Virus record (IMG/VR): IMGVR_UViG_3300038829_000108 | Coordinates: 1-43,053 of that record | Origin: a virus | Length of the DNA stretch: 43,053 nucleotides | Strand: one strand, 5' to 3' | Made by a program: the position numbers and the translations under genes | In this document: positions 1-30,189 of the stretch, in pieces | How the letters are laid out: each line of letters starts with the position of its first letter | Position numbering within the stretch: position 1 is the stretch's first letter | Notes under the pieces: model-generated | What the model was told of the DNA's origin: nothing | Database searches by the model: none | The model's input: the letters and a program-made list of their open reading frames with translations, nothing else

Positions 1-127
1 CCGCGGCAGTGATCCCCGCCGCAAGCAACAGACCGCCCACGCGCCCCAAATCACTGAGCGCGCCGAGCGCCTTCGGTCTTGCGCTGTTGATGTCCCCGAT
101 CAGCCCAGCGCTATCCGCCGCCAGATC
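1..127. repeat. Terminal direct repeat, left copy (circular assembly overlap)
   Basis: 127 nt identical to 42927-43053. It lies inside the tape measure reading frame. Confidence 0.95.
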
Positions 128-157
128 AAGAACAGCCTCGCCTAAACTACCTGACAT
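1..157 (-). CDS. Tape measure protein, 5' end (wraps the junction; 1-127 duplicates 42927-43053)
   Basis: ATG at 157-155 follows directly after the TAA of the G-T ORF (158-160) and is preceded by AAGGAG. It reads MSGSLGEAVLDLAADSAGLIGDINSARPKALGALSDLGRVGG, in frame with ORF 40858..42975. The joined ORF is 741 aa. Confidence 0.8.
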   Translation of the reverse strand, partial: MSGSLGEAVLDLAADSAGLIGDINSARPKALGALSDLGRVGGLLLAAGITAA

Positions 158-906
158 TTATTCTCCTTGTTCACTCTCCCCTAAATGCGGAGCATTTGGG
201 GGAGATGCCGCTTTAGCGGCAGAGGGGGTCGCAGAGGGGGTATTGAGACCAGGGGACGGGGGTGGAGTCATAACCACACCAACGCCCAACAACCTCAACA
301 CCGCTGGGCTGGCAATCTCCGCTTCCATCTCCTGCAGGCGGGCTTGCCCTTTCCACAGGTCCAACAGGTCGCTTCGATCATCATCTTTCAAATGCGGGAA
401 GGAGACCGCTTCCGAGATCGCCAGCTTCATCTCGGCCAGACGCACGGGCAGCCTCTCTAAATATGCTCCGATGGCGCTCATGGGCATCTCGCTTACATCC
501 GCGAAACCCAGGCCATACCAGAAACTTATTTTCGAGAACCCTTCCGCCCAGTCATATTCTTCAAGGCGGTCTCCATCGCTTTTTTTCCTTGCGTCTGTTC
601 CATGTAGAACGTCAATATCCGCATCTTCATCAGGAACGTGATCTCGCCGATCGGGAAGTCGGGGCACAGCATTCGGATCATGTCGTCGAACGTGCTCTCC
701 ATATCAAGAGCCTGCTGATCGGTCATCTCCTCATTCAACAGCTTCAACCCATCGGCCTTCTTTTGCATCTTCTGCAATTGCACGGCCTGCTTCGGTCCCA
801 GCGCCTCGATCCTCATCAACTCATAATCGCGCCCGCCCTGCGTCACCTTCACGCTATTCGATTGCCCAAACAGCTCATCCAGATTTAGTTTCTTTACCTC
901 AGCCAT
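158..906 (-). CDS. Tail assembly chaperone G-T fusion made by -1 programmed frameshift
   Basis: The zero frame reads CAA GGA AAA AAA GCG. After a -1 slip on A AAA AAA the reading continues SDGDRLEEYDW, which matches ORF 158..667. Confidence 0.8.
175..241 (-). repeat. Stem-loop + mirror-repeat element, copy A
   Basis: Hairpin 1 at 175-205 (TCTCCCCTAAATGC/GCATTTGGGGGAGA). Hairpin 2 at 207-220 (GCCGC-TTTA-GCGGC). AGAGGGGGT at 221-229, with a second copy at 233-241. Confidence 0.85.
526..906 (-). CDS. Tail assembly chaperone (gpG-like)
   Basis: 126-aa ORF between the major tail protein and the tape measure. It contains the slippery site and is overlapped by a -1 frame ORF. Confidence 0.85.
   Translation of the reverse strand: MAEVKKLNLDELFGQSNSVKVTQGGRDYELMRIEALGPKQAVQLQKMQKKADGLKLLNEEMTDQQALDMESTFDDMIRMLCPDFPIGEITFLMKMRILTFYMEQTQGKKAMETALKNMTGRKGSRK
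580..586 (-). promoter_or_regulatory. -1 frameshift slippery heptamer A AAA AAA
   Basis: Seven T on the plus strand at 580-586, inside the overlap of the G and T frames. Confidence 0.8.
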
Positions 907-924
907 AAATCCTCGCTTCCTTTT

Positions 925-986
925 TCTCCCCCAAATACTCCCGAAGGGATATTTGGGGGAGATGTCGCGTCAGCGACAGAGGGGGT
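925..986 (-). repeat. Stem-loop + mirror-repeat element, copy B
   Basis: Hairpin 1 at 925-962. Hairpin 2 at 964-977 (GTCGC-GTCA-GCGAC). AGAGGGGGT at 978-986. The upstream stop is at 989. Confidence 0.85.
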
Positions 987-988
987 GC

Positions 989-1576
989 CTACGGCAGCGC
1001 CGCCGCATCCTGTGCTTCAAAGATGCCAAAGCGCTCCGCCTCGGTTGCCGTATCCAGGTCTTCCAACACTTCGAACTTCGCGGGGATCAATGTCTTCTCG
1101 CCTTTTTTGAACTCGCTTCCGACGTCATCGTCGAAGTATCCGCGCGGCACGTAATACTGCGCGGGCATACTAGCCCCATAAGGCGACTTGCCGCGGAATA
1201 AAAAGGCGAACTCACTCACCTCCGAACCCGTGTACATTCCAACCTTGCGGTAGCCGATCGTTCCCACGCCAGCCGCAATATCCGTCACGGTCAGGCCCAC
1301 CACATCCGCCAGGTTCTCCAGCGTAATATCCTGCAGGTTCGTCTCCAGCATCACGCCTTCCTCTTCCTGCGTAACGCCGATTGGCCCCGTTCGTTGATCC
1401 GCGAATAGTTTGTTGCGTTTGCGCGTCTTTGTGAACTTCACGCCCCCGTCGGTAAATCCAAGCGCGCGCCAGCTTCCCGAAGGGGTCGCGTCCAGCGCGG
1501 GCTTTGCGGTCGCAGAGGGAGCGATGTACAGCGTCCCCGCTCCCACCAGTAATTGATATGGTTTTGTTGATGGCAT
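989..1576 (-). CDS. Major tail protein
   Basis: 195 aa, AAGGAGG RBS, positioned directly upstream of the G/GT chaperones. The sequence resembles a siphovirus tail tube protein. Confidence 0.75.
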   Translation of the reverse strand: MPSTKPYQLLVGAGTLYIAPSATAKPALDATPSGSWRALGFTDGGVKFTKTRKRNKLFADQRTGPIGVTQEEEGVMLETNLQDITLENLADVVGLTVTDIAAGVGTIGYRKVGMYTGSEVSEFAFLFRGKSPYGASMPAQYYVPRGYFDDDVGSEFKKGEKTLIPAKFEVLEDLDTATEAERFGIFEAQDAAALP

Positions 1577-1587
1577 TTCATGCCTCC

Positions 1588-1809
1588 TTATAAAATTTCG
1601 ACATAGCCAATGCGCTCCAGGCGCTTGGCTTCTTTGGGATCGACATCATGCTCGCTTCCAGCCTCGCCCAGGCCTTCCACAGCCCGCCCAGGTTTGATCC
1701 TCACCCGCACAGTTGCTGCGGCTCCTCCTCGAGGAACATGTTCTTTCTCTTTGCTCTTATTCTCGTTTGGCTGAAGAGCTTTATTCTCTAATTCAAAATC
1801 ATCTTTCAT
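1588..1809 (-). CDS. Hypothetical protein (73 aa)
   Basis: ATG overlaps the upstream stop (ATGA coupling) within the neck-tail module. Confidence 0.55.
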   Translation of the reverse strand: MKDDFELENKALQPNENKSKEKEHVPRGGAAATVRVRIKPGRAVEGLGEAGSEHDVDPKEAKRLERIGYVEIL

Positions 1810-2219
1810 AGCACAGCCTCCTCGCTGATCTCGCTTTTGAAAAACACCACGCCCATGTCCATCTTCAGCTCGTCCTCATATAAAAATGACAATCCTGATT
1901 CTGGATAGAAGTAATGCACGAGCGCGTTTCCTTTGCTGGTGGTTACCACAAACCGCTCATTGTCTCGGCTCAAACCGATCAACTCCTGATACACGGTCGT
2001 AATGCCCGCCGTGCTCTGGCCATAGATACTCAGCTCGATTCGCTGGTCCACAACCTCGGCATACAGATCGAACGGCCCGCCGTCCGCATGAACGGTCACG
2101 CCCAAATCATTCACGGTCCAGTCACTGCCATAGCGATGCTTCCCAGCCACGCGGCCATTCGCGCTCGTCAGCGCGGTTTCCAACCATTGGATGATCGTCT
2201 CGATCGGGTCAATGTCCAT
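1806..2219 (-). CDS. Tail terminator / tail completion-like protein
   Basis: 137 aa, GGAGGA RBS, positioned between the gp10-like gene and the tail tube gene. Confidence 0.5.
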   Translation of the reverse strand: MDIDPIETIIQWLETALTSANGRVAGKHRYGSDWTVNDLGVTVHADGGPFDLYAEVVDQRIELSIYGQSTAGITTVYQELIGLSRDNERFVVTTSKGNALVHYFYPESGLSFLYEDELKMDMGVVFFKSEISEEAVL

Positions 2220-2232
2220 AACTTCCTTTTTT

Positions 2233-2293
2233 CCTCCTCCAAATGGCGCTCTCCCGTTTGGGGGAGGTGCCGAAGGCGGAGGGGGTCGGGGGT
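2233..2293 (-). repeat. Stem-loop + mirror-repeat element, copy C
   Basis: Hairpin 1 at 2233-2267 (CCTCCTCCAAATGG/CCGTTTGGGGGAGG). GCC-GAA-GGC hairpin. GGAGGGGGT at 2278-2286. It abuts the stop at 2293. Confidence 0.8.
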
Positions 2294-2727
2294 CATTTCT
2301 TCATCTGATGCTTCTTCAAAATCCCTGGCAGTTCAGGCTTCGCTTTCGCCAGGCCGTTCGTCAGATAGTGATAGCCAGTAAAACTATGGTGTCCCTGATG
2401 CACGGGCAGCGCGTACGTCAACCCGCTTCCAATTTGCAGGGTTGTCTTTACGCCAATGGTCTTGGCCTTCACTCCGCGGCCGCCTCGCTCTGGGCTGGCC
2501 TTGCCTGGCGTCACATCATCGGCGGACCATGCATAGCCAGGCTCAGCCACGTGGATGGATCGCCTCAGGGTGCCAGTCAGCACGCCATGCCCGCGCTTCA
2601 ATTGCTTCTTGGCATGGCGTTCCACGGTCAAGCCGAATTCCATATAGGCTTCCGCCATGTTATCTTGCACAGCTTGCACAACCTTTACGCCGCGCCAGAC
2701 GAGTCGCTTTACTGGATTTCTCGCCAT
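2293..2727 (-). CDS. HK97 gp10-family neck protein
   Basis: 144 aa, conserved position, and a C-terminal motif (YALPVHQG...) like the gp10 family. Confidence 0.65.
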   Translation of the reverse strand: MARNPVKRLVWRGVKVVQAVQDNMAEAYMEFGLTVERHAKKQLKRGHGVLTGTLRRSIHVAEPGYAWSADDVTPGKASPERGGRGVKAKTIGVKTTLQIGSGLTYALPVHQGHHSFTGYHYLTNGLAKAKPELPGILKKHQMKK

Positions 2728-2742
2728 ACCACTTCCTATATC

Positions 2743-2813
2743 TCTCCCCTAAATTGCGACTTTGTCCCCTTCAGGGGTAGCAATTTGGGGGAGATGCCGA
2801 AGGCAGAGGGGGT
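2743..2813 (-). repeat. Stem-loop + mirror-repeat element, copy D
   Basis: Hairpin 1 at 2743-2794 with a nested TCCCC-TTCA-GGGG. TGCC-GAA-GGCA hairpin. AGAGGGGGT at 2805-2813, overlapping the stop codon. Confidence 0.85.
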
Positions 2814-3169
2814 CACGAAACCTTCTCCAGCATGGCTGTCTTGTGATGTGCGACCATCCTTCGTCTCGTAAGGATTTCCGTCACCACAAACATTCCAGCC
2901 ATCACGCTCGCATCTTCCAGCGTTACTTCGGTCACCTCTGCGTGTTCGCGCAAGTCCGCGCCAGCGCCGACAATCAACAAATAAACGGTCTTCACCGTGT
3001 TCTCGCCGCGTTCGTCGCTCCAGATTCGTTCCCGCTTCTCCACCAGCCTGCATCGCGTGCCGCGTATCAACGGGTCGAACGCTGGCGCCTCGTTATTGTG
3101 TGCATCGAGTCCGCCTGGTGCGGCATTCCTGATCGAGCAGGTATGGATCAGCAGGGTGTCGAGGCTCAT
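2813..3169 (-). CDS. Head closure / head-tail adaptor protein
   Basis: 118 aa, start overlaps the upstream stop, SPP1 gp16-like position. Confidence 0.55.
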   Translation of the reverse strand: MSLDTLLIHTCSIRNAAPGGLDAHNNEAPAFDPLIRGTRCRLVEKRERIWSDERGENTVKTVYLLIVGAGADLREHAEVTEVTLEDASVMAGMFVVTEILTRRRMVAHHKTAMLEKVS

Positions 3170-3498
3170 AGTCTGATGACGGCTGCGGTCACACTCGTGC
3201 CTGCTGAAAAATCAACCTGCACCTTGCCATCGGTGTTATAGATGCTTGGCGGGAAAGGCCCGATCAACTTATTCACGCCCGCGCCAACCGCCACCACCAG
3301 GTCAGCCACAGCCAGGCTATCCACCGTGGGCTGGGTGATCGTCGTCACATTGATGGACCCGCCGCTTGCATTCTTCACATACAGGAAGCACGCGCCATCA
3401 TTGACAAACTCATTTCCATTCGGCTGATCCACCGCCGCAAAGGTATGAGTCAAACCAGTTCGCACGATCTGCTGCACACTCAAATTCGTCCTAGCCAT
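3166..3498 (-). CDS. Hypothetical structural protein (110 aa)
   Basis: AAAGGAG RBS, located in the head-neck module. Confidence 0.6.
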   Translation of the reverse strand: MARTNLSVQQIVRTGLTHTFAAVDQPNGNEFVNDGACFLYVKNASGGSINVTTITQPTVDSLAVADLVVAVGAGVNKLIGPFPPSIYNTDGKVQVDFSAGTSVTAAVIRL

Positions 3499-3528
3499 AG
3501 AATCTCCTTTCTAACTATTCACCAGTCG

Positions 3529-4038
3529 CTACAACGCCTGAAACATCAATCGCTTCATCGTCTTGCGAAATTCGGCATCCCAATTGTCAGGAGCCGTGTA
3601 CGAATATTCACCCGCAATGTTCTCGCTTTTCATCGCCGTGCGCTCGAGCACGATCCGTATCAGGTCAATGATTACCTGCTCGCGCTTCAGCCGATCATCC
3701 GCAGGCTGATACGTCACCACGCATACATCGCCCCAGTTTGCATTGATCGGCAATCGCTCGATCACGCCGCCCGCCCATACGTGATAGTCGTCTGCTGTAA
3801 GCGCAGTGTCATCCTCGACAATACTCACAACATCATGGATCTCTGTAGGCAGAAACAGCGACTCACCCTCGCCGCGCATTGTCTTCACGACCTGCGAAGG
3901 CGTAACGCCCGTCCACGGCGCGCCGATCTTCTCGATGATTTGAGCCTCGACACGATCAATGATCTTCTGCAAGTTCACATCCGACATGGATGTATTCACA
4001 AGAGCTTTCACATCAGCGGGCAATATAAGACTGGTCAT
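3529..4038 (-). CDS. Head-tail connector (gp6-like)
   Basis: ATG at 4038 with a GAGGAA RBS was chosen. The upstream ATG at 4065 lies inside repeat element E. The N-terminus is gp6-like (LILPADVKAL...IIDRVEAQIIE). Confidence 0.65.
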   Translation of the reverse strand: MTSLILPADVKALVNTSMSDVNLQKIIDRVEAQIIEKIGAPWTGVTPSQVVKTMRGEGESLFLPTEIHDVVSIVEDDTALTADDYHVWAGGVIERLPINANWGDVCVVTYQPADDRLKREQVIIDLIRIVLERTAMKSENIAGEYSYTAPDNWDAEFRKTMKRLMFQAL

Positions 4039-4054
4039 TAGTTCCTCGGGTTTA

Positions 4055-4101
4055 CCCTCCCCCATTTCAAAGACCGAAATGGGGGAGGGCAGGGTCAGGG
4101 T
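4055..4101 (-). repeat. Stem-loop element, copy E (degenerate tail)
   Basis: CCCTCCCCCATTTC-7nt-GAAATGGGGGAGGG, then CAGGGTCAGGGT. It abuts the stop at 4102. Confidence 0.75.
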
Positions 4102-4533
4102 TTACGCAATCCCCTCATAAGGGCTTGCGTGAATCTCGCCCGCATTACTCTCAGGGCGATTCCGACCGCCATAGAGAATGGCAATCACCGCCACAGGTGT
4201 CGCTGCAACCGCATTCGGCACCGCAACAGACGGACGCACATACTGCTCAGTCGGGCGATAGATGTCCAGCATCGTCGAGCCATCCGCGCCAACAGTTGTG
4301 GCGAAGGCGACTGAAGTATCTTTTAAATCAGCCACAGTGCCATAAGCCGAATCGCTGTCCTGCTGGGCTTTGACAGTGAAATTCAACGCCTCGCCTTTCA
4401 GGGCATAGACATAAAAGGCGACGCCTTCATAGCCAGACATATCCACACCAGCGCCAACCAGCGTCTCGTTATCAGCCGCCTTCAAAACCTGCGGCACAAA
4501 CTTCGTATCCTCAAACATATCTTTGAATAACAT
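4102..4533 (-). CDS. Hypothetical capsid-associated protein (possible decoration protein)
   Basis: ATG at 4533 sits 9 nt after AAGGAG. The track start at 4551 is a TTG. The gene lies directly downstream of the major capsid gene. Confidence 0.6.
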   Translation of the reverse strand: MLFKDMFEDTKFVPQVLKAADNETLVGAGVDMSGYEGVAFYVYALKGEALNFTVKAQQDSDSAYGTVADLKDTSVAFATTVGADGSTMLDIYRPTEQYVRPSVAVPNAVAATPVAVIAILYGGRNRPESNAGEIHASPYEGIA

Positions 4534-4561
4534 GGTTTTTTTCTCCTTCAATCTTCCTCCT

Positions 4562-4608
4562 CCTCCTCCATTTTCGTTTTTTGAAAATGGGGGAGGTCGG
4601 GAGGGGGT
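4562..4608 (-). repeat. Stem-loop + mirror-repeat element, copy F
   Basis: CCTCCTCCATTTTC-7nt-GAAAATGGGGGAGG, TCG linker, GGAGGGGGT. It lies 4 nt from the stop at 4613. Confidence 0.85.
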
Positions 4609-4612
4609 TGGC

Positions 4613-5896
4613 TTACGCCTTCACCTTCAGGTGATAGAACGCCTCATTTGATACGGGCATACCGTCAGTTTCCAAGCGACCGATGAAGCCAGTCTGATCG
4701 GTTTCGGCATACAACTCGTCCAGGCGTTTGATGCTCAGGTTCAGCGAATCAACAATCCAGTAATACTGGAAATCACCGATGGTGGCGATCAACTCGTTGT
4801 CCTTATAAACATCGCTGGTATCCAAACCAGTCGGATACTGATCTGAAAGCTCATACGCCCAATCCAAAATGGTGCTCGGGTGACCACTGCTCAAGCCTGG
4901 CTGCCAAAGATATTGGTTGTTGCTGTCTTTCAGCAAACGCACCTTGCGCAGGAAGGAGCGATTGGTCAGGATGCGAGCCGTTCCCGCGTAAGCCGCGGGC
5001 AGGCTGTATGCCCAGTTGACAATGTCGTCTGGAGCCAAAACATTCGATGCCGCAGTGGTGTACTTCGGAATGCCGCTCCACTGCAAAATACCCATCGGGC
5101 CATTGGCGCTCTTGCCATTGATGAACGCATATTCCGAAGGCACGCCAAAACGCCTGCCCATGCGGTTGGTGATCCAGCTCTCGATGTCGATCAAGCGGCC
5201 AGCGCGCAGTTCTGTATTGCTGATCAGGATGCGCTTCGCCAGTGGCTTCGGGGTTAAGATGCGTCCGCCGAAAGGCTTGATCTCATCCTTCGAGCCTGTC
5301 TTGATCTCGGTTGTCCACTCGGCATCCGAGAGTTCATTCTCTTCGGTCGGTGTGATGGATGAACCGCCAGGGATCGCGGGTAATACACGGCTAATTCGGC
5401 GCATGGCAGAAACAGGTTCCTGCTTCTCGAGCAGCTCTGAACGTTGCGTATCGGTCACCAGGTAACCGCCTGCTGAAGCGGGGCTGGTGGCAAGGTCCTT
5501 GCGCTCCACACCTTCAAAACCATTCTTCCAATACATAATGGTCGCAATGGCTTGCTTGGCTTGCTTCTCATCGAAGAATCGCTCTTCGATTTCAGCGCTC
5601 TTGAAACCAGCCTGCCGCAATGCGCTCTTCGTCTCAGCGGAGATCGCGCCCTTGCCTTCGCCGCCGCCATTCATCGGCAGTTGCGAGTTCGGCTTGTTGA
5701 ACGTCTCATCCATCCCAGCCGCGCGCTCGAGGCGTTTCGCCCCTGCGGTCTTGGCTTCCACCTGGTCAAGCAGGGTATCTACTGCATCCGCCTTGTCCTT
5801 TGGCAGATCCTTGCCCTTGAACTCATCCAGAATGGTTTTCGCATGTACGTGCAATTGATTGGCTTCGTCATAAAGCCGTTTGATATTCGGGTCCAT
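4613..5896 (-). CDS. Major capsid protein, HK97 family
   Basis: 427 aa with an N-terminal coiled-coil delta-like region and an HK97-like core. It follows the prohead protease. Confidence 0.9.
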   Translation of the reverse strand: MDPNIKRLYDEANQLHVHAKTILDEFKGKDLPKDKADAVDTLLDQVEAKTAGAKRLERAAGMDETFNKPNSQLPMNGGGEGKGAISAETKSALRQAGFKSAEIEERFFDEKQAKQAIATIMYWKNGFEGVERKDLATSPASAGGYLVTDTQRSELLEKQEPVSAMRRISRVLPAIPGGSSITPTEENELSDAEWTTEIKTGSKDEIKPFGGRILTPKPLAKRILISNTELRAGRLIDIESWITNRMGRRFGVPSEYAFINGKSANGPMGILQWSGIPKYTTAASNVLAPDDIVNWAYSLPAAYAGTARILTNRSFLRKVRLLKDSNNQYLWQPGLSSGHPSTILDWAYELSDQYPTGLDTSDVYKDNELIATIGDFQYYWIVDSLNLSIKRLDELYAETDQTGFIGRLETDGMPVSNEAFYHLKVKA

Positions 5897-5911
5897 GAAA
5901 ATTCTCCTTGT

Positions 5912-6697
5912 CTAATTTGAAATATGCGCGAGCTGGATTTCCGCCGCTCGCAGGCGTTTCGTCAACAGTGCAGAGTGCATGACCTTCTGCGGCTCTGCGG
6001 CTGTAAGTAGATTATTCAAAGCCTCCATCGCGCCCTCCATCGCGCTTATGGCGTTCGTCACTTTCTCTTTGTTGGCAGTGCTCAACACACGCCCCTCTTT
6101 CATCTCGACGATAAAAGCATTCCACTTTTCAGCGTACGCCTTCACCATCGCCCCGTCCGACTGCGAAGTCCCTGAAAGGGGATCACTATTCACTGGTAAC
6201 TGACCACTACTTTTCATCAACGCCGCCTTCACAGCGCGGATCTCCGTCAACGCATTCATGCCCAAAGGTACAGGGCTGATCTCGTATAGTTTCACTTCAC
6301 GCAAATTGCGGACGTTCATACCGCCAGGCATATTTTCAAAATCGAACTTGACCGCCTCGTAACCAAACGAGCCTTCGGTCAACGCGCCATCCTTCATCAG
6401 CGCCCAGGCTTCCTTGCCCCAGAATGAGTCAAGCGTCAGACGACCGCCCGCAAACAGACCCACCGCATCTTCCTGCAGGACAGTGGGGGGCGGTCCGATC
6501 AGCTTATTCCAATCGTGAGCATAGAAGACCTTCACACGTTTTGCGCGTTCTGTGATCGTCTTCTGAAACATGCCAGGATGAGCAATATCACTGCCATCAT
6601 CCACGTTTCCGAAGATTGAAAAATGTCCTTCGTATTGCCCTTCGTTGCCAATGGCTTTGAACTCCACCGCAGTTGATTTGTATTCCAAGTCGCTCAT
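5912..6697 (-). CDS. Prohead protease (HK97 / S78 type) with a scaffold-like C-terminal tail
   Basis: ATG at 6697 with an AAGGAG RBS. Motifs include GHFSIFGNVDDGSDI and SFGY...EVKLYEISPVPLGMN. The longer track ORF would begin inside repeat element G. Confidence 0.85.
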   Translation of the reverse strand: MSDLEYKSTAVEFKAIGNEGQYEGHFSIFGNVDDGSDIAHPGMFQKTITERAKRVKVFYAHDWNKLIGPPPTVLQEDAVGLFAGGRLTLDSFWGKEAWALMKDGALTEGSFGYEAVKFDFENMPGGMNVRNLREVKLYEISPVPLGMNALTEIRAVKAALMKSSGQLPVNSDPLSGTSQSDGAMVKAYAEKWNAFIVEMKEGRVLSTANKEKVTNAISAMEGAMEALNNLLTAAEPQKVMHSALLTKRLRAAEIQLAHISN

Positions 6698-6723
6698 ATT
6701 GTTCTCCTTACAACAATCTTCCT

Positions 6724-6776
6724 CCTCCCCCAAATGCGCTCTTGTTCTTCGCATTTGGGGGAGGTCGGGAGGGGGT
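6724..6776 (-). repeat. Stem-loop + mirror-repeat element, copy G
   Basis: 15-bp stem CCTCCCCCAAATGCG/CGCATTTGGGGGAGG, TCG linker, GGAGGGGGT. It abuts the portal stop at 6777. Confidence 0.9.
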
Positions 6777-8822
6777 CTATCCTCTATCTCCAAACGCATA
6801 AGACCACGTGGTCTCTGCTTCATCGTCGCCAAAATATGGCGCTGCCGCGCGTGAACAATTCGGATGCTGTAATGTGTTCGCTTCGAACAACTCTACAGTC
6901 CAGATTTGACCGTTTGCCAGATCGCACGCAGGTGCGCTGTCGTCAGCGCCACCATCCAGAATTTCAACCTTCGCCACGCCTGCGCCCTTATAGCGTTCGG
7001 CTGTGGCAGTATTTTGCGCCTGACCCAGTTCAGAGATCGCCACAGCGCGCGAACGGTTCTTGTAGGTTTCCTCAACAATGTCGCGCAATCCTGGGTGGGT
7101 ATCATCACCGCGCACAAGTTGGTCTATGCCCCATCCATTCTCGCTTCCATACTGCAAGGCTTCACGCAGGGCTTGCAATGTTTCACCTTGTATGTCCTCA
7201 GCGTGCTTTCCAGCCATTTTCAACGTGCGGGTTACGGCAGGGTCATTCAGGTCAAATGCCTTCTCCACGCCAAGCGCAACATTCCACGTATCCCAGGACA
7301 AGCGGGCAACCTCAACATAAAAACGTTTGACCAATGTTTCCAATTCCTGCTTGTCGGAATCATTCAACAGATCATCAGCGTCAGGCAGTTTTTTCACTGA
7401 TAACTGATAACTGATCACTGACTTCTTCCCTGCCCGATCAACCACGCGCCCTGCAAGCCCGCTGAAATATGCGCCTACAGACGCGCTCATCTTGGGCGCA
7501 AGTTTTTTACGAATATCCAGCAATGAGCTTGTAACGGATCGTCTTTGTGCTTTTGTCTCTGCGCGCATCCAAGCCTGTTTTTTAGGCTCGTTATTTCGCA
7601 GTACCTCACCGCTCCCATCTGCAGGTAAAAATTCTGTAGCCAATGAAACCTTGTAGACCTTATCGCCTGGCTCGGCTTTCAACCCGAGCATTTGTTTCAT
7701 CATCTCGCGTGTAATCGCCCCACGATCAAATGCCAGGGTCAAACGATCCCAACGCTTGCTTTCTTCTTCCTGCAATGCCCCCACTCGCCGCAGATCAAAC
7801 TGCAATGTGAAATTGCCAGGCAGACCAGGGTATTCATCCTTCAGCCCATTCAATAATTCCGAAGCCAGCGATCTCCACAAGGGTATCAATGTCGTTTCGG
7901 TAAATGCGCGTCTCGCGGCTACGTCACCATAATCGCTGCGCTTGATACCAACGTTCAAGCCAGCCACTGATGGAGGCACGCGGAAATTCGCCGCAATCCG
8001 TGATTCAGGAATATCAGCCAGGGTTTCAGCCGCCAATTTATGAAGGTCATACCCCATCTGTTCCACCTTCATTCCATGCGAAATAAATGCGGGTTCGCCC
8101 TTGCCATGCTTCTGTATCCACTGTCTTCCCATCCGATCAACTTCCTCTTGCGTTGAATCATCGTCTTCCTCTTTCGTGATCACAACCGAAGGCACTGCAT
8201 TATTTTTCAGCAGGGAAAATATATAGGATGATGCTTCGTTGTCCTTATCCACTTCACGCGCAGAAAGTTCAATCGCGCCGATCCCTTTCGCAGGCTGTAA
8301 TGGGTCAATCATCCACTTCCATTGAATGACATCATTCTTTGGAATTTGTATCTTCTTGCTATCGCCAGAATCGTATTCGTAGAAAGCTACAAACCCTTCG
8401 CTTGTGTTATGCCCTGGCGCAGGTGAGATCTGTCCATCATTGAATGGCCACAAATAAACGACCTTGCCGCTCGCCGATCTCTGCTTCCAGAAATAACAAT
8501 TACCTCCTGTGGGGGCATAGGTAATCGCAAACTGCATCATCTCTGCCTCACCCATATCTGGGTTCGGGTTCCTGATCAACTTCATGATCGGGTGGTTATA
8601 GTCTGGTACGAAGCGTCCTTCTTCATCGTATCCAGCCAGCAATGGAGGTTCAGGGAATGAAAATGCCAGCGTCGTTACGCACGCGCTCACAGCAGAATTT
8701 ACCCGATACCCCTCGCGGATTAGCCTGCTGTAAGAGATCAACGAAAAACTATGACGCACCCATTCAGGCACGAAAGAAAATAAAGAAGCCGCTTTGCGGA
8801 ATAAACCAGTGAACCATTTCAT
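6777..8822 (-). CDS. Portal protein fused to a MuF / SPP1 gp7-like minor head domain
   Basis: 681 aa. The N-terminal ~430 aa look like an HK97-type portal. The C-terminus ends with the MuF-like motif QHPNCSRAA. Confidence 0.8.
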   Translation of the reverse strand: MKWFTGLFRKAASLFSFVPEWVRHSFSLISYSRLIREGYRVNSAVSACVTTLAFSFPEPPLLAGYDEEGRFVPDYNHPIMKLIRNPNPDMGEAEMMQFAITYAPTGGNCYFWKQRSASGKVVYLWPFNDGQISPAPGHNTSEGFVAFYEYDSGDSKKIQIPKNDVIQWKWMIDPLQPAKGIGAIELSAREVDKDNEASSYIFSLLKNNAVPSVVITKEEDDDSTQEEVDRMGRQWIQKHGKGEPAFISHGMKVEQMGYDLHKLAAETLADIPESRIAANFRVPPSVAGLNVGIKRSDYGDVAARRAFTETTLIPLWRSLASELLNGLKDEYPGLPGNFTLQFDLRRVGALQEEESKRWDRLTLAFDRGAITREMMKQMLGLKAEPGDKVYKVSLATEFLPADGSGEVLRNNEPKKQAWMRAETKAQRRSVTSSLLDIRKKLAPKMSASVGAYFSGLAGRVVDRAGKKSVISYQLSVKKLPDADDLLNDSDKQELETLVKRFYVEVARLSWDTWNVALGVEKAFDLNDPAVTRTLKMAGKHAEDIQGETLQALREALQYGSENGWGIDQLVRGDDTHPGLRDIVEETYKNRSRAVAISELGQAQNTATAERYKGAGVAKVEILDGGADDSAPACDLANGQIWTVELFEANTLQHPNCSRAAAPYFGDDEAETTWSYAFGDRG

Positions 8823-12774: not shown

Positions 12775-14025
12775 TCAAGCCATTTGTGTTGATAAAAGAA
12801 CTGGCGTTTGTCCGCTGAACTGCGCCCATCTTTCAATCGTCACTGCCGCGTAGATCGTATCCAACTCCACTGCCCTGCATCGCCTCCCGAGTTGCTCACA
12901 GACAATTAAAGTTGTCCCGCTCCCAACAAATGGGTCAATCACTATATCGCCAGGCAAGCTCGAATTATTCAGCGATCTCTCCACCAGCGGAAGCGGCTTC
13001 ATGGTTGGATGATCGTCACTGCGCTTCGGTCTATCTATTTGCCAAACATCTGATTGTTTGCGGTCTGTAACTTCTCGCACTCGTGAAGCGTCGCTTTTCC
13101 ATCCATACCAGAGCGGCTCGAATTGCGTATGATAGTCTTTGCGTGAAAGCACAAGTTGATCCTTCATCCAAATGATCGTACTTGACCAATGGAAGCCTTT
13201 ATCCCTCAAGACCTTGTCAATCACGGGCCACTCCTGCGCGCTCATTGCCAAATAGATCAACGCGCCTGGCTCGCAAGCATTCCAAATACTATTCACTGCC
13301 GCGCGCATGAACTCAGGAAATTTCTCTCCCAAATTATCGTTTTTCATTGTTCGTTTTTTATAACCCTGAGGGTTATCTTTTTCAATGTGCCCGCCATAAT
13401 CCACATTCCATGGCGGATCAGTCCAGCAAATCTGCGCTTTCTCTCCCTGCATCAATTTATCCATCACGCTTTCATCTGTGCAATCTCCAACAAATAACCG
13501 ATGATTTCCCAACGTCCACAATTGACCTTCTTCCACTTTCCATTTCTGAACCAATTCATCGGCTTGATCCATAAGTTCAGCAGGATCGGCGGTTTCCTCC
13601 TGTATATTTGCATCCGCCTGAAGAAGTAACTTCTGCAATTCCTTGTCCAGAAAACCGAGCGAATCAAAATCCAGACCAAGCGCAGCATCCTGCGCGATCA
13701 CATCCGCGTCCCACTCCAAATCAATTTCAGCCACGCGATTATCAAGGTATGCCAATCGTCGCGCCTCACCTGCAGAGTCTTCAAGATCTAAATCCTGACG
13801 CTGAACGACAACGAGTTCATCCCGATTGGTTGGAATGATCCGCACCTTCATTCCCGCCTTCCTCGCCGCCTCCAACGTCTTATTACCAGCAATCACATGC
13901 CCATCTTTATCCACCAGGATGGATCGCCCTGCTCCCAATTCCTTTATGGATTGCTCAAGCAGTTCTCTTCCGCGCCCTGTGCCTTTATTCGCATTGTGAT
14001 TGTCATATTGTAAATTGTCACTCAT
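12775..14025 (-). CDS. ParB-N domain fused to a beta-class DNA methyltransferase (DPPW, likely N6-adenine)
   Basis: ATG at 14025 overlaps the upstream TGA (ATGA) after GGAGGA. The ParB-like N-domain contains GRSILVDKDGHVIAGNKTLEAARKAG. Motif IV is TDPPW and precedes motif I IDPFVGSGTT. Confidence 0.85.
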   Translation of the reverse strand: MSDNLQYDNHNANKGTGRGRELLEQSIKELGAGRSILVDKDGHVIAGNKTLEAARKAGMKVRIIPTNRDELVVVQRQDLDLEDSAGEARRLAYLDNRVAEIDLEWDADVIAQDAALGLDFDSLGFLDKELQKLLLQADANIQEETADPAELMDQADELVQKWKVEEGQLWTLGNHRLFVGDCTDESVMDKLMQGEKAQICWTDPPWNVDYGGHIEKDNPQGYKKRTMKNDNLGEKFPEFMRAAVNSIWNACEPGALIYLAMSAQEWPVIDKVLRDKGFHWSSTIIWMKDQLVLSRKDYHTQFEPLWYGWKSDASRVREVTDRKQSDVWQIDRPKRSDDHPTMKPLPLVERSLNNSSLPGDIVIDPFVGSGTTLIVCEQLGRRCRAVELDTIYAAVTIERWAQFSGQTPVLLSTQMA

Positions 14026-15416
14026 ACATCCTCCGCTAATATCGGGTTTTTGCCCGTCAATAAATACCACCTCTCTAATGTAGCCGCCACATATTTGGGC
14101 AACAGTTCACTGCCATAACAAATTCTGCCCATCACCTCGCAGGCGATCAACGTTGTCCCGCTTCCGCAGAATGGCTCAAAGACGATCTCGCCGCGCTTTG
14201 TATAAAGCATCAAATGACGGATTGGCAACTCCAACGGAAACGCCGCCTCATGTCCGTTTGACCTGGCATTGCCTTTTATATCGTCCCAATATGCGCGCAG
14301 CGCCCACGTTGTTCCCGTCCATTCCTGCCCGCGTTGTTTTCCTTGTTTATGATAAAAAGTCAAAAGACTCTGCACATCGTCTTCGCGCACAGCATCTTCA
14401 AATTTCATCGTCTGACCTTCAGCGTGTTCGTATGTCCCTAAAAATTCACAATGCTGATCTATCACATCCGCCCTGGGCGATGTACTCATCAATTGTCCCT
14501 CCTTCAGCCAATGACGTACATGCCGCAAATTCCAACCGCGAGATCTCAAATCATTTGTCCACTGGTCAATCAATAGCAATACATGCCGCTTTGCCTTCTT
14601 GTCGAATGCGGTTGTAAATCCAGTGCCCGTATTGATCACAATTCTACTTTCGTCTCTCCGCGTTACTGCGTCAATCACGCCGCATATTTGTTCAATGAAT
14701 TCTGAAATCTGTTCTTCGCTCGTCTGTGTTTCATATCCCTTGCCCACCCAATAAGGCGGACTGGTAAAGGTCAAAGCCGCCTTGTCGCTTCCCATCAGAC
14801 GATCCATGTTCCCCATGTCAGTTGCATCTCCGCAGATCAACCGATGGTTTCCCATCTTCCATACCTGTCCCACCTCCACGCCCCATTTGACGGTCAGCTC
14901 GTCGCCCTTTTCGCTCTGGTCACCTGGGTCTTTTCCTGCTTCATCCCCAATTCCAGCCTGATCCAGCAACTGGCGCAACTCCCCCTCGAGGAAACCAACC
15001 CCATCAAGTTCAAGACCTGCCGCCATATCGTCAGCCAATTGCTCTGCATCCCAATTCAAGTCCAATTCACTCACGCGATTATCCATGTATGCCAGGCGTC
15101 GAGCTTCACCAGATGAATCATTCAGATCCAGATCAGTTCGTTGAACAGCGACCAGCTCATCCCGTCCCGCCTGAACGATACGGACTTTCAACCCTGCCTC
15201 CTGCGCCGCATCGAATGTCTTATTGCCAGCGATCAACTTTCCATTCTTATCCAACAGGACAGAACGTCCGCCTCCCAGCTCGCGCACCGACTGAGTCAAA
15301 AGTTTCTTGCCGCGCTCCGTGCCTTTATTGGCATTATGTTCATCGTGAGTGATTTCCCCCTCTCCATTTGTACTCAAATGGGGAGGGGTCAGGGGTGGGG
15401 TCGGGTTATTCGTCAT
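14022..15416 (-). CDS. ParB-N domain fused to a beta-class DNA methyltransferase (SPPY, likely N4-cytosine)
   Basis: The N-domain is paralogous to the downstream gene. Motif IV is TSPPY and motif I is FEPFCGSGTT. The first ~20 codons are encoded by repeat element H. Confidence 0.8.
   Translation of the reverse strand: MTNNPTPPLTPPHLSTNGEGEITHDEHNANKGTERGKKLLTQSVRELGGGRSVLLDKNGKLIAGNKTFDAAQEAGLKVRIVQAGRDELVAVQRTDLDLNDSSGEARRLAYMDNRVSELDLNWDAEQLADDMAAGLELDGVGFLEGELRQLLDQAGIGDEAGKDPGDQSEKGDELTVKWGVEVGQVWKMGNHRLICGDATDMGNMDRLMGSDKAALTFTSPPYWVGKGYETQTSEEQISEFIEQICGVIDAVTRRDESRIVINTGTGFTTAFDKKAKRHVLLLIDQWTNDLRSRGWNLRHVRHWLKEGQLMSTSPRADVIDQHCEFLGTYEHAEGQTMKFEDAVREDDVQSLLTFYHKQGKQRGQEWTGTTWALRAYWDDIKGNARSNGHEAAFPLELPIRHLMLYTKRGEIVFEPFCGSGTTLIACEVMGRICYGSELLPKYVAATLERWYLLTGKNPILAEDV
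15357..15406 (-). repeat. Stem-loop element, copy H (inside the methyltransferase N-terminal codons)
   Basis: CCCCTCTCCATTTG-TACT-CAAATGGGGAGGGG, then TCAGGGGTGGGGTCGGGT. It abuts the TerS-like stop at 15406. Confidence 0.75.
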
Positions 15417-15903
15417 CGTCTAAATCTCCCATCAACTTCAATGCCATCTTGCGGTCTTGATGACTCTTCGCATCAGGCTTCACAGCCACAGCCACCATCG
15501 CAGTAATGATCTCTGCGCGATGTTTCCACAAAGGACTCCCCTGTAGTTTATGCACCATCTGATCAATCAAAGGATTTTTATTGCGCCATGTGACGATTGC
15601 TCGATCACTTGAAAGTCCCAGGTGAAAGCGCGCAAGCTCATCTTGTGTTTTGGGTTCTCTTCCCCCTTTGGGCGTCGAAGCCCATGCAATGTACGCCGCA
15701 ACCCTCCAGGGCCATCCGCCCTTATACAACTCCAGATAATCTTCCAACCAGCGCGGAGCGCCAGCCCTGCCATACAACAACTCAAGAGCCTTGCGTGCAA
15801 CATTGCTCTTCTCTTTTGCATCCTCAGGTGATTGTGATTCATCTTCTGGTTCTGCAATGTCCAGATTCAACGACAACTGATAAACAGGTTTTACGATTGG
15901 CAT
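15406..15903 (-). CDS. TerS-like HTH protein (paralog of the terminase small subunit)
   Basis: 165 aa. It shares MPI-P-YQL-LNLD, WP-RVAA and PKTQD-LA..LG-SSDR..WR-KNP-ID-MV with ORF 10353..11126. Confidence 0.7.
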   Translation of the reverse strand: MPIVKPVYQLSLNLDIAEPEDESQSPEDAKEKSNVARKALELLYGRAGAPRWLEDYLELYKGGWPWRVAAYIAWASTPKGGREPKTQDELARFHLGLSSDRAIVTWRNKNPLIDQMVHKLQGSPLWKHRAEIITAMVAVAVKPDAKSHQDRKMALKLMGDLDDDE

Positions 15904-25508: not shown

Positions 25509-25646
25509 CGCTCACACCATTCAGATTTTTTCAAACCGTCCACACACCATTTCTTACAACATGTTCAGAATTTTCGAGCCGCTTACCGAGCCACCCACCA
25601 TAAAAAAAAAGAAGTGACCGACCCCACCCCCTCCCCTTGCCTGTTC

Positions 25647-25683
25647 ATGCAACATAACCCCATGTTATGTTGCATCCTTTTTT
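25647..25683 (+). terminator. Plus-strand rho-independent terminator-like hairpin preceded by a C-rich tract
   Basis: ATGCAACATAAC-CCCAT-GTTATGTTGCAT followed by CC TTTTTT. The upstream tract ACCGACCCCACCCCCTCCCC resembles an inverted tail of the repeat family. Confidence 0.5.
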
Positions 25684-29716: not shown

Positions 29717-29778
29717 TCTCCCCCAAATTCGCGCTCTTCGATTTGGGGGAGATGTCCCGTAATCGGGACAGAGGGGGT
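29717..29778 (-). repeat. Stem-loop + mirror-repeat element, copy J (early operon)
   Basis: Hairpin 1 at 29717-29752. Hairpin 2 at 29754-29769 (GTCCCG-TAAT-CGGGAC). AGAGGGGGT at 29770-29778. Confidence 0.85.
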
Positions 29779-29895: not shown

Positions 29896-30189
29896 TTATT
29901 CCGCTTTTGGTAATCGAAAAACGATCATCCCGCTGTCAAACACATGCGGCATGATCGCCTTGAGTGAATCAACCGCGAAGTACATCCGCCAGTCTGTATA
30001 AGTTGTGACGCAATTAAGGAAGAGATAAAGGTCGGGCGCGCGGTTCGGGTCGTTTTCCCACTTGGAGATCGTCTCGCCTGATATGCTCACATTGACCAGC
30101 TTTTCGGTCAACTTATCGGCAAACCCGCGCACAGACAACGCCTGCTGGCGGCGATATTCTTTAACTACTTCTTGAAAGGTTATTTCCAT
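29896..30189 (-). CDS. Cro-like XRE-family HTH regulator
   Basis: 97 aa. HTH region LSVRGFADKL...ISGETISKWENDPNR. It is divergent from the CI-like gene. AAGGAAG RBS. Confidence 0.75.
   Translation of the reverse strand: MEITFQEVVKEYRRQQALSVRGFADKLTEKLVNVSISGETISKWENDPNRAPDLYLFLNCVTTYTDWRMYFAVDSLKAIMPHVFDSGMIVFRLPKAE

Follow-up and report, generated by a model that had tools for sequence, protein, structure and literature searches.

Nine stem-loop elements behind phage genes are probable members of a REP-like repeat family of Anaerolineae chromosomes

What kind of element stands repeatedly between the genes of this virus? The window, i.e., the entire 43,053-nt stretch of IMGVR_UViG_3300038829_000108, holds nine sites (A, B, C, D, E, F, G, H and J; hereafter copies A–J) at which a C-rich box and a stem-loop follow one another on the coding strand. 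The original prediction presented them as a phage module, possibly triplex-forming, that may set the stoichiometry of structural proteins. We consider it probable that the nine elements belong, as single units, to a dispersed family of palindromic repeats that is native to the chromosomes of Anaerolineae (Chloroflexota) and similar to REP/REPIN or MITE elements.

All nine predicted copies were present, in the same orientation, on the coding (minus) strand. Within the window, TTTGGGGGAG (≤1 mismatch) occurred 16 times compared with 3.8 expected, a count reached in 0 of 100 shuffles, and GAGGGGGT occurred nine times compared with 1.05 expected. A covariance model trained on 116 family members and run on the window returned exactly nine sites with scores of 31–61 bits (E 1e-5 to 6e-13), each scoring higher on the minus strand than on the plus strand; the model identified no tenth site. 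Folding in the mRNA sense yielded −18 to −36 kcal/mol for the nine copies, with z values of −3.0 to −6.6 against shuffles. The C-box was unpaired in the minimum-energy fold of eight copies, the exception being copy C, where its 3' part was taken into an alternative pairing. A second hairpin (hairpin 2), whose stem sequences differ, was observed in copies A, B, C, D and J.

Copy A (175–241; 33.5 bits; fold −28.7 kcal/mol, z −5.4) reads on the minus strand as two ACCCCCTCT C-boxes, hairpin 2 (GCCGC/GCGGC) and the main stem TCTCCCCCAAATGC/GCATTTAGGGGAGA, which has one C·A mismatch. It is located within a −1-frame ORF (158–667), likely the gpT extension, and the tape-measure ATG (157) lies 17 nt further on. 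Copy B (925–986; 38.2 bits; −35.7 kcal/mol, z −6.6) consists of a C-box, hairpin 2 (GTCGC/GCGAC) and a mismatch-free main stem; the stop codon of the tail-tube gene (989–1576) is 2 nt before it and the start of chaperone gene G (906) 18 nt after it. Copy C (2233–2293; 43 bits, z −3.1) has two C-boxes, hairpin 2 GCC/GGC and two C·A mismatches in a main stem whose 3' arm is TTTGGAGGAGG, and it shares its first base with the TGA of the gene at 2293–2727. Copy D (2743–2813; 35 bits, z −3.0), directly after the TGA of the gene at 2813–3169, has a C-box and hairpin 2 GCC/GGC; its main stem-loop is long and contains one C·A mismatch.

Copy E (4055–4101; 39.4 bits, z −4.7), immediately behind the TAA of the decoration-like gene (4102–4533), combines a perfect 15-bp stem with a degenerate C-box (ACCCTGACCCTG) without a mirror. 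Hairpin 2 is missing from copies F and G. Copy F (4562–4608; 61 bits, z −5.4) begins 4 nt past the stop of the major capsid gene (4613–5896) and reads ACCCCCTCC-CGA-CCTCCCCC, with the 3' arm AAAATGGAGGAGG and one C·A mismatch, while copy G (6724–6776; 60.5 bits, z −6.4) has a perfect 15-bp stem directly after the portal gene stop (6777–8822), 26 nt ahead of the protease gene start (6697). Copy H (15357–15406; 31 bits, z −4.7) is degenerate: its C-tracts are repeated (ACCCGACCCCACCCCTGACCCC) and its stem is CCCCTCCCCATTTG/CAAATGGAGAGGGG; the TAA of the gene at 15406–15903 overlaps its start, and the start of a likely methyltransferase (15343) follows after 13 nt. Copy J (29717–29778; 48.4 bits, z −4.8), comprising a C-box, hairpin 2 (GTCCCG/CGGGAC) and main stem, lies in an early-region spacer of ~200 nt, 117 nt past the end of the gene at 29896–30189 and 21 nt before an ATG (29695); the TGA adjoining it terminates merely a 9-codon frame. 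The predicted placement of the C-box at the upstream stop codon was observed in seven of the nine copies (B to H, 0–4 nt) but not in A and J, and the distance from purine arm to next start, put at 10–25 nt, was 13–28 nt.

The distribution of the element outside the window bears most directly on its nature. The search of IMG/VR and host MAGs was performed with a hairpin-only pattern from which the box had been left out. It recovered 86 copies on 78 stretches of unrelated contigs in IMG/VR, and at least 129 copies on at least 120 stretches in host MAGs, which among the matches listed were almost all Anaerolineae/Chloroflexota. A box stood on at least one side of 77/86 viral and 107/129 host copies among the matches listed, and the C-box adjoined a stop codon in phages and hosts alike. 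Host copies occurred as single units in both orientations, long palindromes and inverted doublets, and their orientation relative to genes was mixed; copies in phage contigs were oriented '>>' in 55 cases versus '<<' in one. The local density near sampled viral copies was also higher than near sampled host copies.

Scatter of this kind, through Anaerolineae chromosomes and many of their phages, gives the element the look of a mobile REP/MITE-like repeat, not of a triplex switch peculiar to the phage. The original prediction had itself named generic REP/MITE scatter in a host genome as evidence against its reading, and with the element dispersed in such genomes both along and against the direction of the genes, its triplex and stoichiometry headline is unsupported as stated. 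The small mobile palindromic element that it offered as an option agrees with this outcome. Its remark that the element was not recognised as a described family also stands, as no counterpart was found in Rfam or in the searched literature. The repeats are comparable in kind to REP/REPIN and MITE families but lack two REP hallmarks, namely the GTAG/CGTC tag and an associated RAYT gene. We regard the family as a new, undescribed REP-like one, unusually frequent in the sampled phage contigs. In its unit the C-rich box reads (G)ACCCCC[T/A]C[C/T] and is followed by a linker of 2–4 nt or a mini-hairpin, and then by a stem with a conserved [C/T]CTCCCCCA(A/T)(A/T)T and a variable top and loop; in the long host palindromes the box pairs with an inverted box.

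A candidate mobilising enzyme was suggested by the genes beside the host copies. Of the Pfam families represented there, DUF559 ranked first (7 of 140 adjoining genes). In hosts, a DUF559/Vsr-like endonuclease gene that occurs in multiple copies had the inverted doublet as its invariable 5' leader, the doublet preceding the start codon at 6/6 DUF559 sites that were sampled independently of the repeat. We infer from this association that the nuclease may mobilise or home the repeat. DUF559 comprises at least 6,895 clusters, and some chance co-occurrence is therefore expected; no DUF559 gene was found in the window or in the 78 viral loci.

Comparison with related phages showed how the copies may have arrived. 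In the spacer between the major capsid protein (MCP) gene and the next gene of L001–L005 (MCP 54–87% identical), the element was absent where the window has copy F, and 217 kb of capsid relatives gave no pattern sites and a single weak covariance-model match of 22 bits (counted twice, L002/L003). Junction C is a bare ATGA stop/start overlap in relatives, and junction D a bare TAATG overlap in L004. Syntenic relatives (50–69% amino acid identity) carried the element, but at other gene junctions, which points to insertion polymorphism. Given this and the absence in close relatives, the phage lineage would have acquired its copies through insertion. Mobility is deduced from the distribution rather than seen, as there was no sign of a transposase-type enzyme, of a target-site duplication or of an otherwise near-identical sequence with the site empty in one case and filled in the other.

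Inserted copies would persist solely in the short gap that separates a stop codon from the following ribosome-binding site, and with their C-rich strand in the mRNA. In the transcript, each would fold into a stable hairpin right after the cistron (−18 to −36 kcal/mol), which we infer could hold up 3' exonucleases or be a site of processing, favouring the upstream message. Such a 3' hairpin function on the mRNA is a plausible hypothesis for a secondary role. A purely selfish element would predict neither the phage orientation bias of more than 50:1 nor the higher viral local density; both point to selection for a function or to a mechanism specific to one strand.

A stronger version of this role, which we hold as a tentative possibility, is that the element is a selected cis-regulatory RNA, with mobility accounting just for the origin of the sequence; the post-stop hairpin would stabilise or process the upstream message or partially attenuate transcription, thereby tuning structural-protein ratios. 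The near-uniform orientation in phage contigs and the adjacency of C-box and stop codon fit this proposal, and the box-first half of the DUF559 doublets likewise follows the stop of the upstream gene. In favour of an RNA role in either version, viral copies were enriched after major tail protein genes, whose families accounted for 6, 5 and 4 of 70 upstream genes and were absent from the top 25 families among 140 control genes. One orthologous junction has retained the element, with three compensatory stem pairs, in phages whose flanking protein is only 56–71% identical, and the spacers of E, B and possibly F are filled by unrelated hairpins in relatives. However, close relatives function without the element, and its junctions vary among syntenic relatives. 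A U-tract is absent, whereas the same genome has canonical terminators elsewhere. The outer-stem defects are of the kind that destabilises RNA, with 33 C·A against 6 G·T (G·U) in the mRNA sense. These C·A mismatches also strain the preferred reading of an inserted repeat with a hairpin role, as a weakened mRNA hairpin fits poorly with a selected RNA stabiliser.

The mirror symmetry between box and 3' stem arm raises the question of which strand is constrained. An exact 8-nt mirror was confirmed in 7/7 of the copies for which it was predicted (A, B, C, D, F, G and J); E and H have lost it, and across the family it was exact in 135/202 copies. The mirror box is part of the family consensus, and the seven copies are therefore not independent events. 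The predicted covariation was confirmed for hairpin 2 and, family-wide, for the variable position (Y), concordant in 195/200 copies. Where the stem arms disagreed at the variable position (n = 14), the box agreed with the C-rich (pyrimidine) arm in 14/14. In copies A, C, D, F and H the plus-strand fold was more stable by 4.5–9 kcal/mol, and the hairpin 2 triloops were mostly TNC in the mRNA sense, equivalent to GNA in the G-strand reading. It is the G-rich DNA strand, and not the mRNA, that appears to be under constraint.

A fold of that strand as single-stranded DNA (hairpin, GNA mini-hairpin and a purine-motif box folded back antiparallel on the purine arm), serving as a strand-specific enzyme target, is an unlikely alternative, and its purine-motif triplex a candidate structure. 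The predicted plus-sense geometry was compatible with all tests run. The box equals the arm at Y in the 195 concordant copies, position X, read on the G strand, is A in 140 copies and T in 55, each permitted by the purine motif opposite A-T, with the disallowed C in five, and in the 14 discordant copies the box tracks the arm that is purine when read on the G strand. T·G wobbles are retained on the G strand (33 versus 6), and most triloops are GNA with a C-G closing pair, a very stable DNA mini-hairpin motif. Nevertheless, plain conservation of one contiguous G-rich segment with subfamily inheritance explains all of this equally well, and only two box positions are informative because the remainder are G runs. 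The 2–4-nt linkers are short for a turn in the form without hairpin 2, and copies E and H persist after mirror loss.

An unusual transcription terminator, either intrinsic without a U-tract or a Rho loading site (the C-rich box) with a pause hairpin, is very unlikely. A C-rich, G-poor box right after stop codons and then a strong hairpin would suit it, as would host copies with boxes on both sides 12–13 nt from facing stops, a bidirectional-terminator arrangement. As predicted, however, no copy has a T-tract and a terminator scan flagged 0/9, yet the genome has canonical hairpin-plus-U terminators (e.g., 12393–12371). Nine terminators within essential polycistronic structural operons would be costly, and a box of 8–25 nt is short for Rho, whose typical loading sites are far longer.

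We give hardly any credence to the predicted pyrimidine-motif triplex in the mRNA, in which the C-box would lie parallel to the purine arm as a 3'-end stabiliser or translation-coupled switch. Its geometry is correct, with the exact mirror in 7/9 window copies and the box unpaired in predicted folds, but it is contradicted by box position 6 (X), where A or G replaces T in 60/200 copies (A in 27%), by the 14/14 discordant copies in which the box tracks the pyrimidine arm and not the purine arm to be read, and by the C·A mismatches in its duplex. The host copies in either orientation relative to genes also oppose it, as do its 5–6 adjacent C+·G-C triples; five or more contiguous triples of this type are unfavourable at neutral pH and need acidic pH. 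Action through a template-strand G-quadruplex or a coding-strand i-motif, built from the repeated G or C tracts, is just as improbable, since the canonical G4 motif occurs in only 51/202 copies and in 0/71 with hairpin 2, and neither the Y nor the hairpin 2 covariation is predicted by it, although the common form without hairpin 2, GGGGGAGGGCAGGGTGGGGG, is such a motif and the degenerate copies E and H have kept four G tracts.

All nine predicted copies of the element, a dispersed palindromic repeat made up of a C-rich box, a linker or mini-hairpin (hairpin 2), a conserved main stem and a variable loop, were confirmed at their positions between 175-241 (copy A) and 29717-29778 (copy J), on the coding (minus) strand. 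A covariance model of 116 family members recovered exactly these nine sites in the window, scoring 31-61 bits and finding no tenth, and each site scored better on the minus strand. The core words were over-represented in the window (16 occurrences vs 3.8 expected, and 9 vs 1.05). When folded in the mRNA sense, that is as the C-rich minus strand, all nine copies exceeded their shuffles, with z values of -3.0 to -6.6. Eight of the minimum-energy folds left the C-rich box unpaired; the ninth, that of copy C (2233-2293), drew the 3' part of the box into an alternative pairing. The exact 8-nt mirror, in which the box is the mirror image of the 3' stem arm on the plus strand, was kept in copies A, B, C, D, F, G and J. 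An intrinsic terminator with a G+C-rich hairpin and a U-tract was rejected, in agreement with the original prediction: the terminator scan called none of the nine copies, none carried a T-tract, and their tails are purine-rich, running into the ribosome-binding site.

The placement of the copies directly at a stop codon held for seven of the nine, each at a real stop, and failed for copies A and J. Copy A lies inside an ORF at 158-667 (minus strand, 169 codons), which is in the -1 frame relative to the chaperone gene G (526-906), reads straight through the copy and stops 1 nt before the tape-measure ATG. This ORF is likely the gpT extension of the tail chaperone; as a gpT frameshift extension, it would have copy A translated as roughly its last 28 residues. 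Copy J is located 117 nt from the nearest upstream gene end.

The window has a length of 43 kb and a G+C content of 51%. Genes were called with a codon-usage log-odds caller, which reproduced the PHROG-supported gene map. The tape-measure gene (minus strand; PHROG tape-measure matches, E 1.5e-40) starts at 157, runs off coordinate 1 and resumes from 43053 to 40858, so the window probably represents an entire siphovirus genome in circular permutation, without flanking host DNA. It encodes a serine integrase (32186-33886, plus strand) and a late operon on the minus strand with the large terminase subunit, portal, protease, major capsid protein (MCP), adaptor, neck and tail-tube genes. Immediately upstream of this operon, on the minus strand, there is a perfect TTGACA-16-TATAAT promoter (12225-12198) and a second promoter with an 11/12 consensus match and a TG extension (12134-12107), and the terminator scan identified a canonical hairpin-plus-U terminator at 12393-12371 (minus strand). 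The promoters and the terminator demonstrate that this genome uses standard signals, unlike the nine elements. No match to the window among cultured phages was obtained by megablast or blastn, and the tRNA scan found none. Two tandem genes, both with a ParB-like nuclease domain joined to a DNA methyltransferase domain, were located at 12775-14070 and 14022-15343 (minus strand; phrog_498, E 1e-106 and 3e-62), and copy H (15357-15406) is immediately upstream of the first-transcribed of these genes. At 25600-25670 on the plus strand, opposed to the surrounding genes, an unrelated hairpin of 12 bp and then a T-run come after a C-rich box (GACCCCACCCCCTCCCC). The covariance model did not recognise this site, which resembles an element box fused to an ordinary bidirectional terminator.

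The family was searched with a pattern consisting of the two stem arms only, the C-rich box being left out. In IMG/VR the pattern identified 86 copies in 78 stretches from unrelated contigs, and in a species-representative genome collection it identified at least 129 copies in at least 120 stretches. Almost all of the host matches listed were Anaerolineae, Anaerolineales or Chloroflexota MAGs, including Ca. Villigracilis, Brevefilum, Anaerolinea thermophila and Desulfolinea, and one host MAG carried pattern matches on at least 12 contigs. A box was present on at least one side in 77 of the 86 viral copies and 107 of the 129 listed host copies. Given that the box was not part of the pattern, this indicates that the whole module, rather than the hairpin alone, is the repeated unit. 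The covariance model gave 233 both-strand matches in 711 kb of host sequence. Near the seed matches, a density that does not extend to whole genomes, additional pattern copies occurred at 4.6 per 100 kb in host, 8.3 in viral and 0 in capsid-relative sequence; the density across the whole window was about 21 per 100 kb. As the repeat is common to the window and to Anaerolineae genomes, we infer that the host of the phage is a member of the Anaerolineae.

Two architectures recurred: type 1, with box, mini-hairpin and stem, and type 2, with box, 2-4-nt linker and stem. The host genomes also contained long palindromes, formed by pairing of the box with an inverted counterpart beyond the stem. Inverted doublets were observed in L096, L112, L122, L132 and L213 and upstream of every sampled gene of the DUF559 family. 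Stem position 12, just inside the conserved AAAT/ATTT, was very often A·G or G·A across the family (for example in L017, L019, L021 and L029), and the loops in the family alignment often read GAGAGCG, AAGAGCG or AAAGAAC in the box-first sense. The purine-purine mismatch and the recurrent loops look like recognition features rather than a plain helix. The spacers around the copies also held other repeats. A conserved motif of about 28 nt (ttagaatctctgttctgactcttgttaa and variants) lies 10-40 nt from copies in L018, L025, L056, L062, L068 and L093, and heptamer-type tandem repeats (AGCGGTT AGCAATC AGCGGTG…; CAGTGAT CAGTTAT CAGTGAC…) stand beside copies in L026, L028, L053 and L054 or in the equivalent spacers of relatives (L004, ∼14060-14110). 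The intergenic spacers that bear the element appear to accumulate short repeats of various kinds.

In the relatives nearest in capsid protein (L001-L005, 54-87% capsid identity), the homologous spacer following the MCP gene is free of the element; in L001 this spacer holds a ribosome-binding site only. Across 217 kb of capsid relatives, the covariance model gave one weak match, the same site counted twice (L002/L003). Relatives show bare stop/start overlaps at junctions C (ATGA) and D (TAATG), in place of which the window has 75-85 nt of element and a new Shine-Dalgarno (SD) sequence. Syntenic relatives that do carry the element (L033, L087, L058, L043, L060 and L021; amino acid identity of 63-69% for the adaptor, 51-52% for the tube and 50-65% for the portal) always have it box-first on the coding strand. 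Two of these, L033 and L087, are occupied at the adaptor|g3166 and g3166|g2813 junctions, where the window is empty, and are empty at g2813|neck and neck|g1806, where the window is occupied. The junctions tube|chaperone, x|adaptor and portal|protease were repeatedly occupied. Such a mosaic of presence and absence across junctions is as produced by a mobile repeat. With regard to the terminal inverted repeats and target-site duplication that mark a MITE, the doublets have inverted ends (box and stem-loop), and the available empty sites are only 70-80% identical, too divergent to delimit a duplication. ATG(A/G) stands on both sides of copy C; this flanking sequence may be a target duplication or may reflect the need to keep both ORFs intact. 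The suggestion that the element is a small mobile palindromic element is supported by its scatter in hosts and by its varying junction occupancy. These sequence comparisons support the view that the phage copies were gained by insertion, and that mobility is why they are there.

The orientation of the copies differed between phages and hosts. Between co-directional genes, phage copies were box-first on the coding strand in 55 cases vs 1 in the opposite sense; the corresponding host counts were 12 vs 17, in addition to convergent and divergent cases. In both groups the co-directional gene on the box side usually ends 0-5 nt from the box, and the core begins 12-31 nt past the upstream stop. In copies boxed on both sides, the facing stop was often 12-13 nt from the core on the far side. 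A conserved GA precedes the C-run and often serves as the last two bases of TGA. The stop codon was considered as an intrinsic part of the element and rejected, since host copies without an upstream gene mostly lack it.

That nearly all phage copies share one orientation suggests a constraint acting on the RNA or on the strand, and the strongest rival explanation is that the phages select the copies as 3' hairpins acting on the stability or processing of the upstream message. We regard this as possible, with the balance somewhat against it. In relatives without the element, unrelated hairpins take its place in spacers E and B, and possibly F. Among the genes directly upstream of viral copies (n = 70), the major tail protein families were enriched (phrog_88 with six genes, phrog_4971 with five and phrog_807 with four); none of the three ranked among the 25 leading families of 140 control genes taken at these loci. 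At one orthologous junction, between a gene of 138 amino acids and the major tail protein gene, the element was kept in seven contigs whose flanking protein is 56-71% identical, with three compensatory stem pairs and a conserved GAGAGCR loop. However, the element is missing from close relatives, junction occupancy varies, and the stem defects are of a kind that weakens an RNA hairpin. We read an effect of a 3' hairpin on the upstream message as a likely, and possibly a selected, consequence of copies that are present through mobility.

The internal structure of the module was then analysed across the family. The compensatory pairs claimed for hairpin 2 were borne out, as all four Watson-Crick combinations occurred at stem position 2. 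Direct stem counting against shuffled linkers showed at least four contiguous Watson-Crick pairs in 50 of the 71 type-1 linkers vs 4.7% of shuffles. The mirror covariation was likewise genuine and is a property of the family, the exact 8-nt mirror being present in 135 of 202 copies and broken in the remaining 33%. At the variable position (Y), the base equalled that 5' of CTCCCCC in 195 of 200 copies (C/C in 164 and T/T in 31), in both architectures. At box position X, where T is expected, A was found in 55 and G in 5 of 200 copies.

A fold of the G strand (plus strand) with an antiparallel purine-motif third strand is compatible with the sequence data, a fit that falls short of proof. At X, as at Y, 195 of 200 copies accommodate the triples of the purine motif (G·G-C, A·A-T and T·A-T), and no other position is informative. 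The G strand tolerates T·G wobbles in the outer stem, and copies A, C, D, F and H were 4.5-9 kcal/mol more stable on the plus strand. The two-strand fold energies of the pattern-selected family showed only small differences, which can be understood given that the search pattern demanded perfect outer stems. The triloops of hairpin 2 were mostly TNC in the mRNA sense, corresponding to GNA closed by C-G on the G strand, and GNA triloops closed by C-G form DNA mini-hairpins of very high stability. The mirror counts would be explained equally well by simple conservation of a single uninterrupted G-rich stretch together with inheritance within subfamilies.

The interpretation of the element as a triplex switch was not supported for the mRNA, and a pyrimidine-motif triplex in the mRNA sense is very unlikely. 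Position X was A or G in 60 of 200 copies, the box followed the pyrimidine arm in all 14 copies whose arms are discordant at Y (T,T,G in seven and C,C,A in seven), and the outer-stem defects in the mRNA sense, counted in box-oriented copies, were C·A in 33 vs G·T in 6. This defect bias was confined to the outer conserved stem; the inner stem had 10 G·T vs 10 A·C. Five or six adjacent C+·G-C triples are, moreover, unfavourable at neutral pH. The scatter of the element through host genomes in mixed orientation to genes also argues against the switch. A G-quadruplex or i-motif was rejected as a family feature, as 51 of 202 copies had the G4 motif and not one of these was among the 71 type-1 copies. 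A polar DNA motif of the Chi or KOPS kind was rejected, as it leaves the palindrome and the covariation of hairpin 2 unexplained.

The gene neighbourhoods of the host copies pointed to a candidate enzyme for the family. DUF559, which has a Vsr-like PD-(D/E)XK endonuclease fold, was the most frequent Pfam family (7 members) among the 140 genes adjoining host copies. Homologues occurred at 10 of the 120 listed host loci and at none of the 78 viral loci or in the window. The leader preceding these genes is a doublet: a box and stem-loop a, often directly after the TGA of the upstream gene, are followed by a spacer of about 50-110 nt and then by stem-loop b and an inverted G-rich box. The DUF559 start codon (MHKRTTPK...) lies 3-10 nt past the inverted box, which places the G-rich box where an SD sequence would stand. 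All sampled DUF559 genes of Anaerolineae had this leader (L142, L158, L204, L214, L215, L220, L225, L234, L235 and L236); this held for each of the six DUF559 sites that, as a guard against sampling bias, were sampled independently of the repeat and chosen solely for their long contigs. A protein search returned at least 6,895 clusters at E ≤1e-20, mostly on contigs of about 1 kb, as expected of repeats that break assemblies; the repeat explains why Anaerolineae assemblies break into such contigs at DUF559 genes. Against the PDB, the protein matched 3hrl ("endonuclease-like protein", E 2e-26) and, at a weak, marginal level, 3r3p ("mobile intron protein", E 0.009). The latter entry is the Vsr-like homing endonuclease I-Bth0305I, which shows a mobile-element nuclease to be part of the fold family. 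By analogy with the RAYT protein of REP elements, we infer that the DUF559 nuclease may be the cognate mobilising or homing enzyme of the element.

An extended form of this proposal, which we consider unlikely, is that the element is the non-autonomous partner of a new DUF559/Vsr-like nuclease-repeat system. The endonuclease would recognise the folded single-stranded G strand through its T·G-wobble hairpin, GNA mini-hairpin and purine-motif third strand, the last of which would explain the mirror covariation. The repeat would colonise phages and use them to spread across the class Anaerolineae, and phages may have exapted single units as junction modules supplying a stop codon, a hairpin and a ribosome-binding site. 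If the DUF559 link is causal, it gives a function to a very large endonuclease family that is so far uncharacterised and adds a second nuclease-plus-repeat system beside RAYT-REP. The mirror covariation and strand asymmetry together offer a clean test of a natural ssDNA triplex as a recognition structure.

We regard the family as an apparently undescribed variant of REP/MITE repeats. It shares with the REP and REPIN sequences of Enterobacteria, Pseudomonas and others short imperfect palindromes that are dispersed, intergenic and high in copy number, a conserved stem sequence with a variable top, and the occurrence of single units and of inverted doublets able to form a larger hairpin. Both are mostly downstream of ORFs, with a stop codon sometimes supplied or abutted, and both have a dedicated nuclease-type gene flanked by repeats, here DUF559. 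REPs are mostly found 3' of ORFs, at times supplying or abutting the stop codon; GTAG-type REPs supply TAG stops to flanking ORFs, and REPs are defined by a GTAG or CGTC tag of four nucleotides at one palindrome end (PMC3733652). The units described here, in contrast, begin with (G)ACCCCC, and the GTAG/CGTC tag was seen in none of the alignments. An IS200-like Y1 (RAYT) gene was not found near the copies: Y1_Tnp was absent from the 25 Pfam families listed of 132 (140 genes by host copies, 8-kb windows), and a rough screen for the RAYT HUH/Y motifs gave no matches in 1,760 predicted proteins from 8-kb windows. With these two defining features lacking, the element was not filed as a REP sensu stricto. 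It further differs in its partner gene, the PD-(D/E)XK Vsr-like DUF559, itself highly multi-copy, in the additional C-rich mirror box and optional mini-hairpin, and in how often it occurs in phage contigs; in Pseudomonas fluorescens Pf-5, a lack of REPs correlates with predicted phage regions (PMC7416659).

Among phage repeats, the closest analogue is the SAS/ESAS of Cluster K mycobacteriophages. These are multi-copy intergenic inverted repeats in one orientation with a variable spacer, located just upstream of an SD-containing motif and start codon, with the left repeat better conserved than the right; they have been reported only in phages and are confined to the non-structural right halves of the genomes (PMC3203893). 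Our element, unlike these, is host-wide, lies mainly in the structural operon, begins at the upstream stop and carries a mirror box. With H-DNA-type intramolecular triplex motifs it shares a mirror repeat of the homopurine/homopyrimidine type (8-9 nt, short spacer) in which the mirror position covaries. However, its arms are short, one mirror half is already held in a Watson-Crick hairpin, 33% of the copies break the exact mirror, and the pyrimidine-motif prediction fails in the discordant copies. Integron attC sites resemble the element as imperfect palindromes that follow ORFs directly, share one orientation and have conserved outer stems around variable centres; in attC sites, recognition is of the single strand in its folded form, with mismatches that are strand-selective. 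The GTTRRRY/RYYYAAC cores were not seen on reading the element copies, and the neighbours of the element are essential phage structural genes rather than cassettes. No integron integrase was present in the partial annotation, the only integrase found being of the serine type. As for the nuclease, the weak DUF559 match relates it to the Vsr-like "EDxHD" homing endonucleases (I-Bth0305I, PDB 3r3p), from which it differs in that the DUF559 genes are free-standing, not in introns, and the match is marginal.

The original prediction that this is not a described family was upheld: Rfam gave no match at gathering thresholds over the whole window, and a permissive search of positions 1-7000 gave only two chance-level matches at E < 1. 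In the literature searched (core sequence, Anaerolineae/Chloroflexi REP, REPIN/RAYT and DUF559), no description of the element was found, and the core sequence did not occur in a relevant context. REP-type dispersed palindromes have been studied mostly in Proteobacteria, and the present family extends them to a differing architecture that is spread across an under-studied phylum and tied to a different nuclease gene. Three of its features stand out: the mirror covariation, the asymmetry of the G strand and, taken together, the extreme bias in orientation and the frequent occurrence in phage contigs. The family also provides a concrete candidate enzyme. The motif can further serve as a host-prediction marker for uncultured Anaerolineae phages. 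One additional arrangement was observed in the host stretch L220, where tandem units of about 52 nt, each with the stem-loop of the element (…cattcgaaaaacacgaatggggga ggggtcatatatctcggcgcttct…), lie at 1355-1620 directly after the DUF559 stop.
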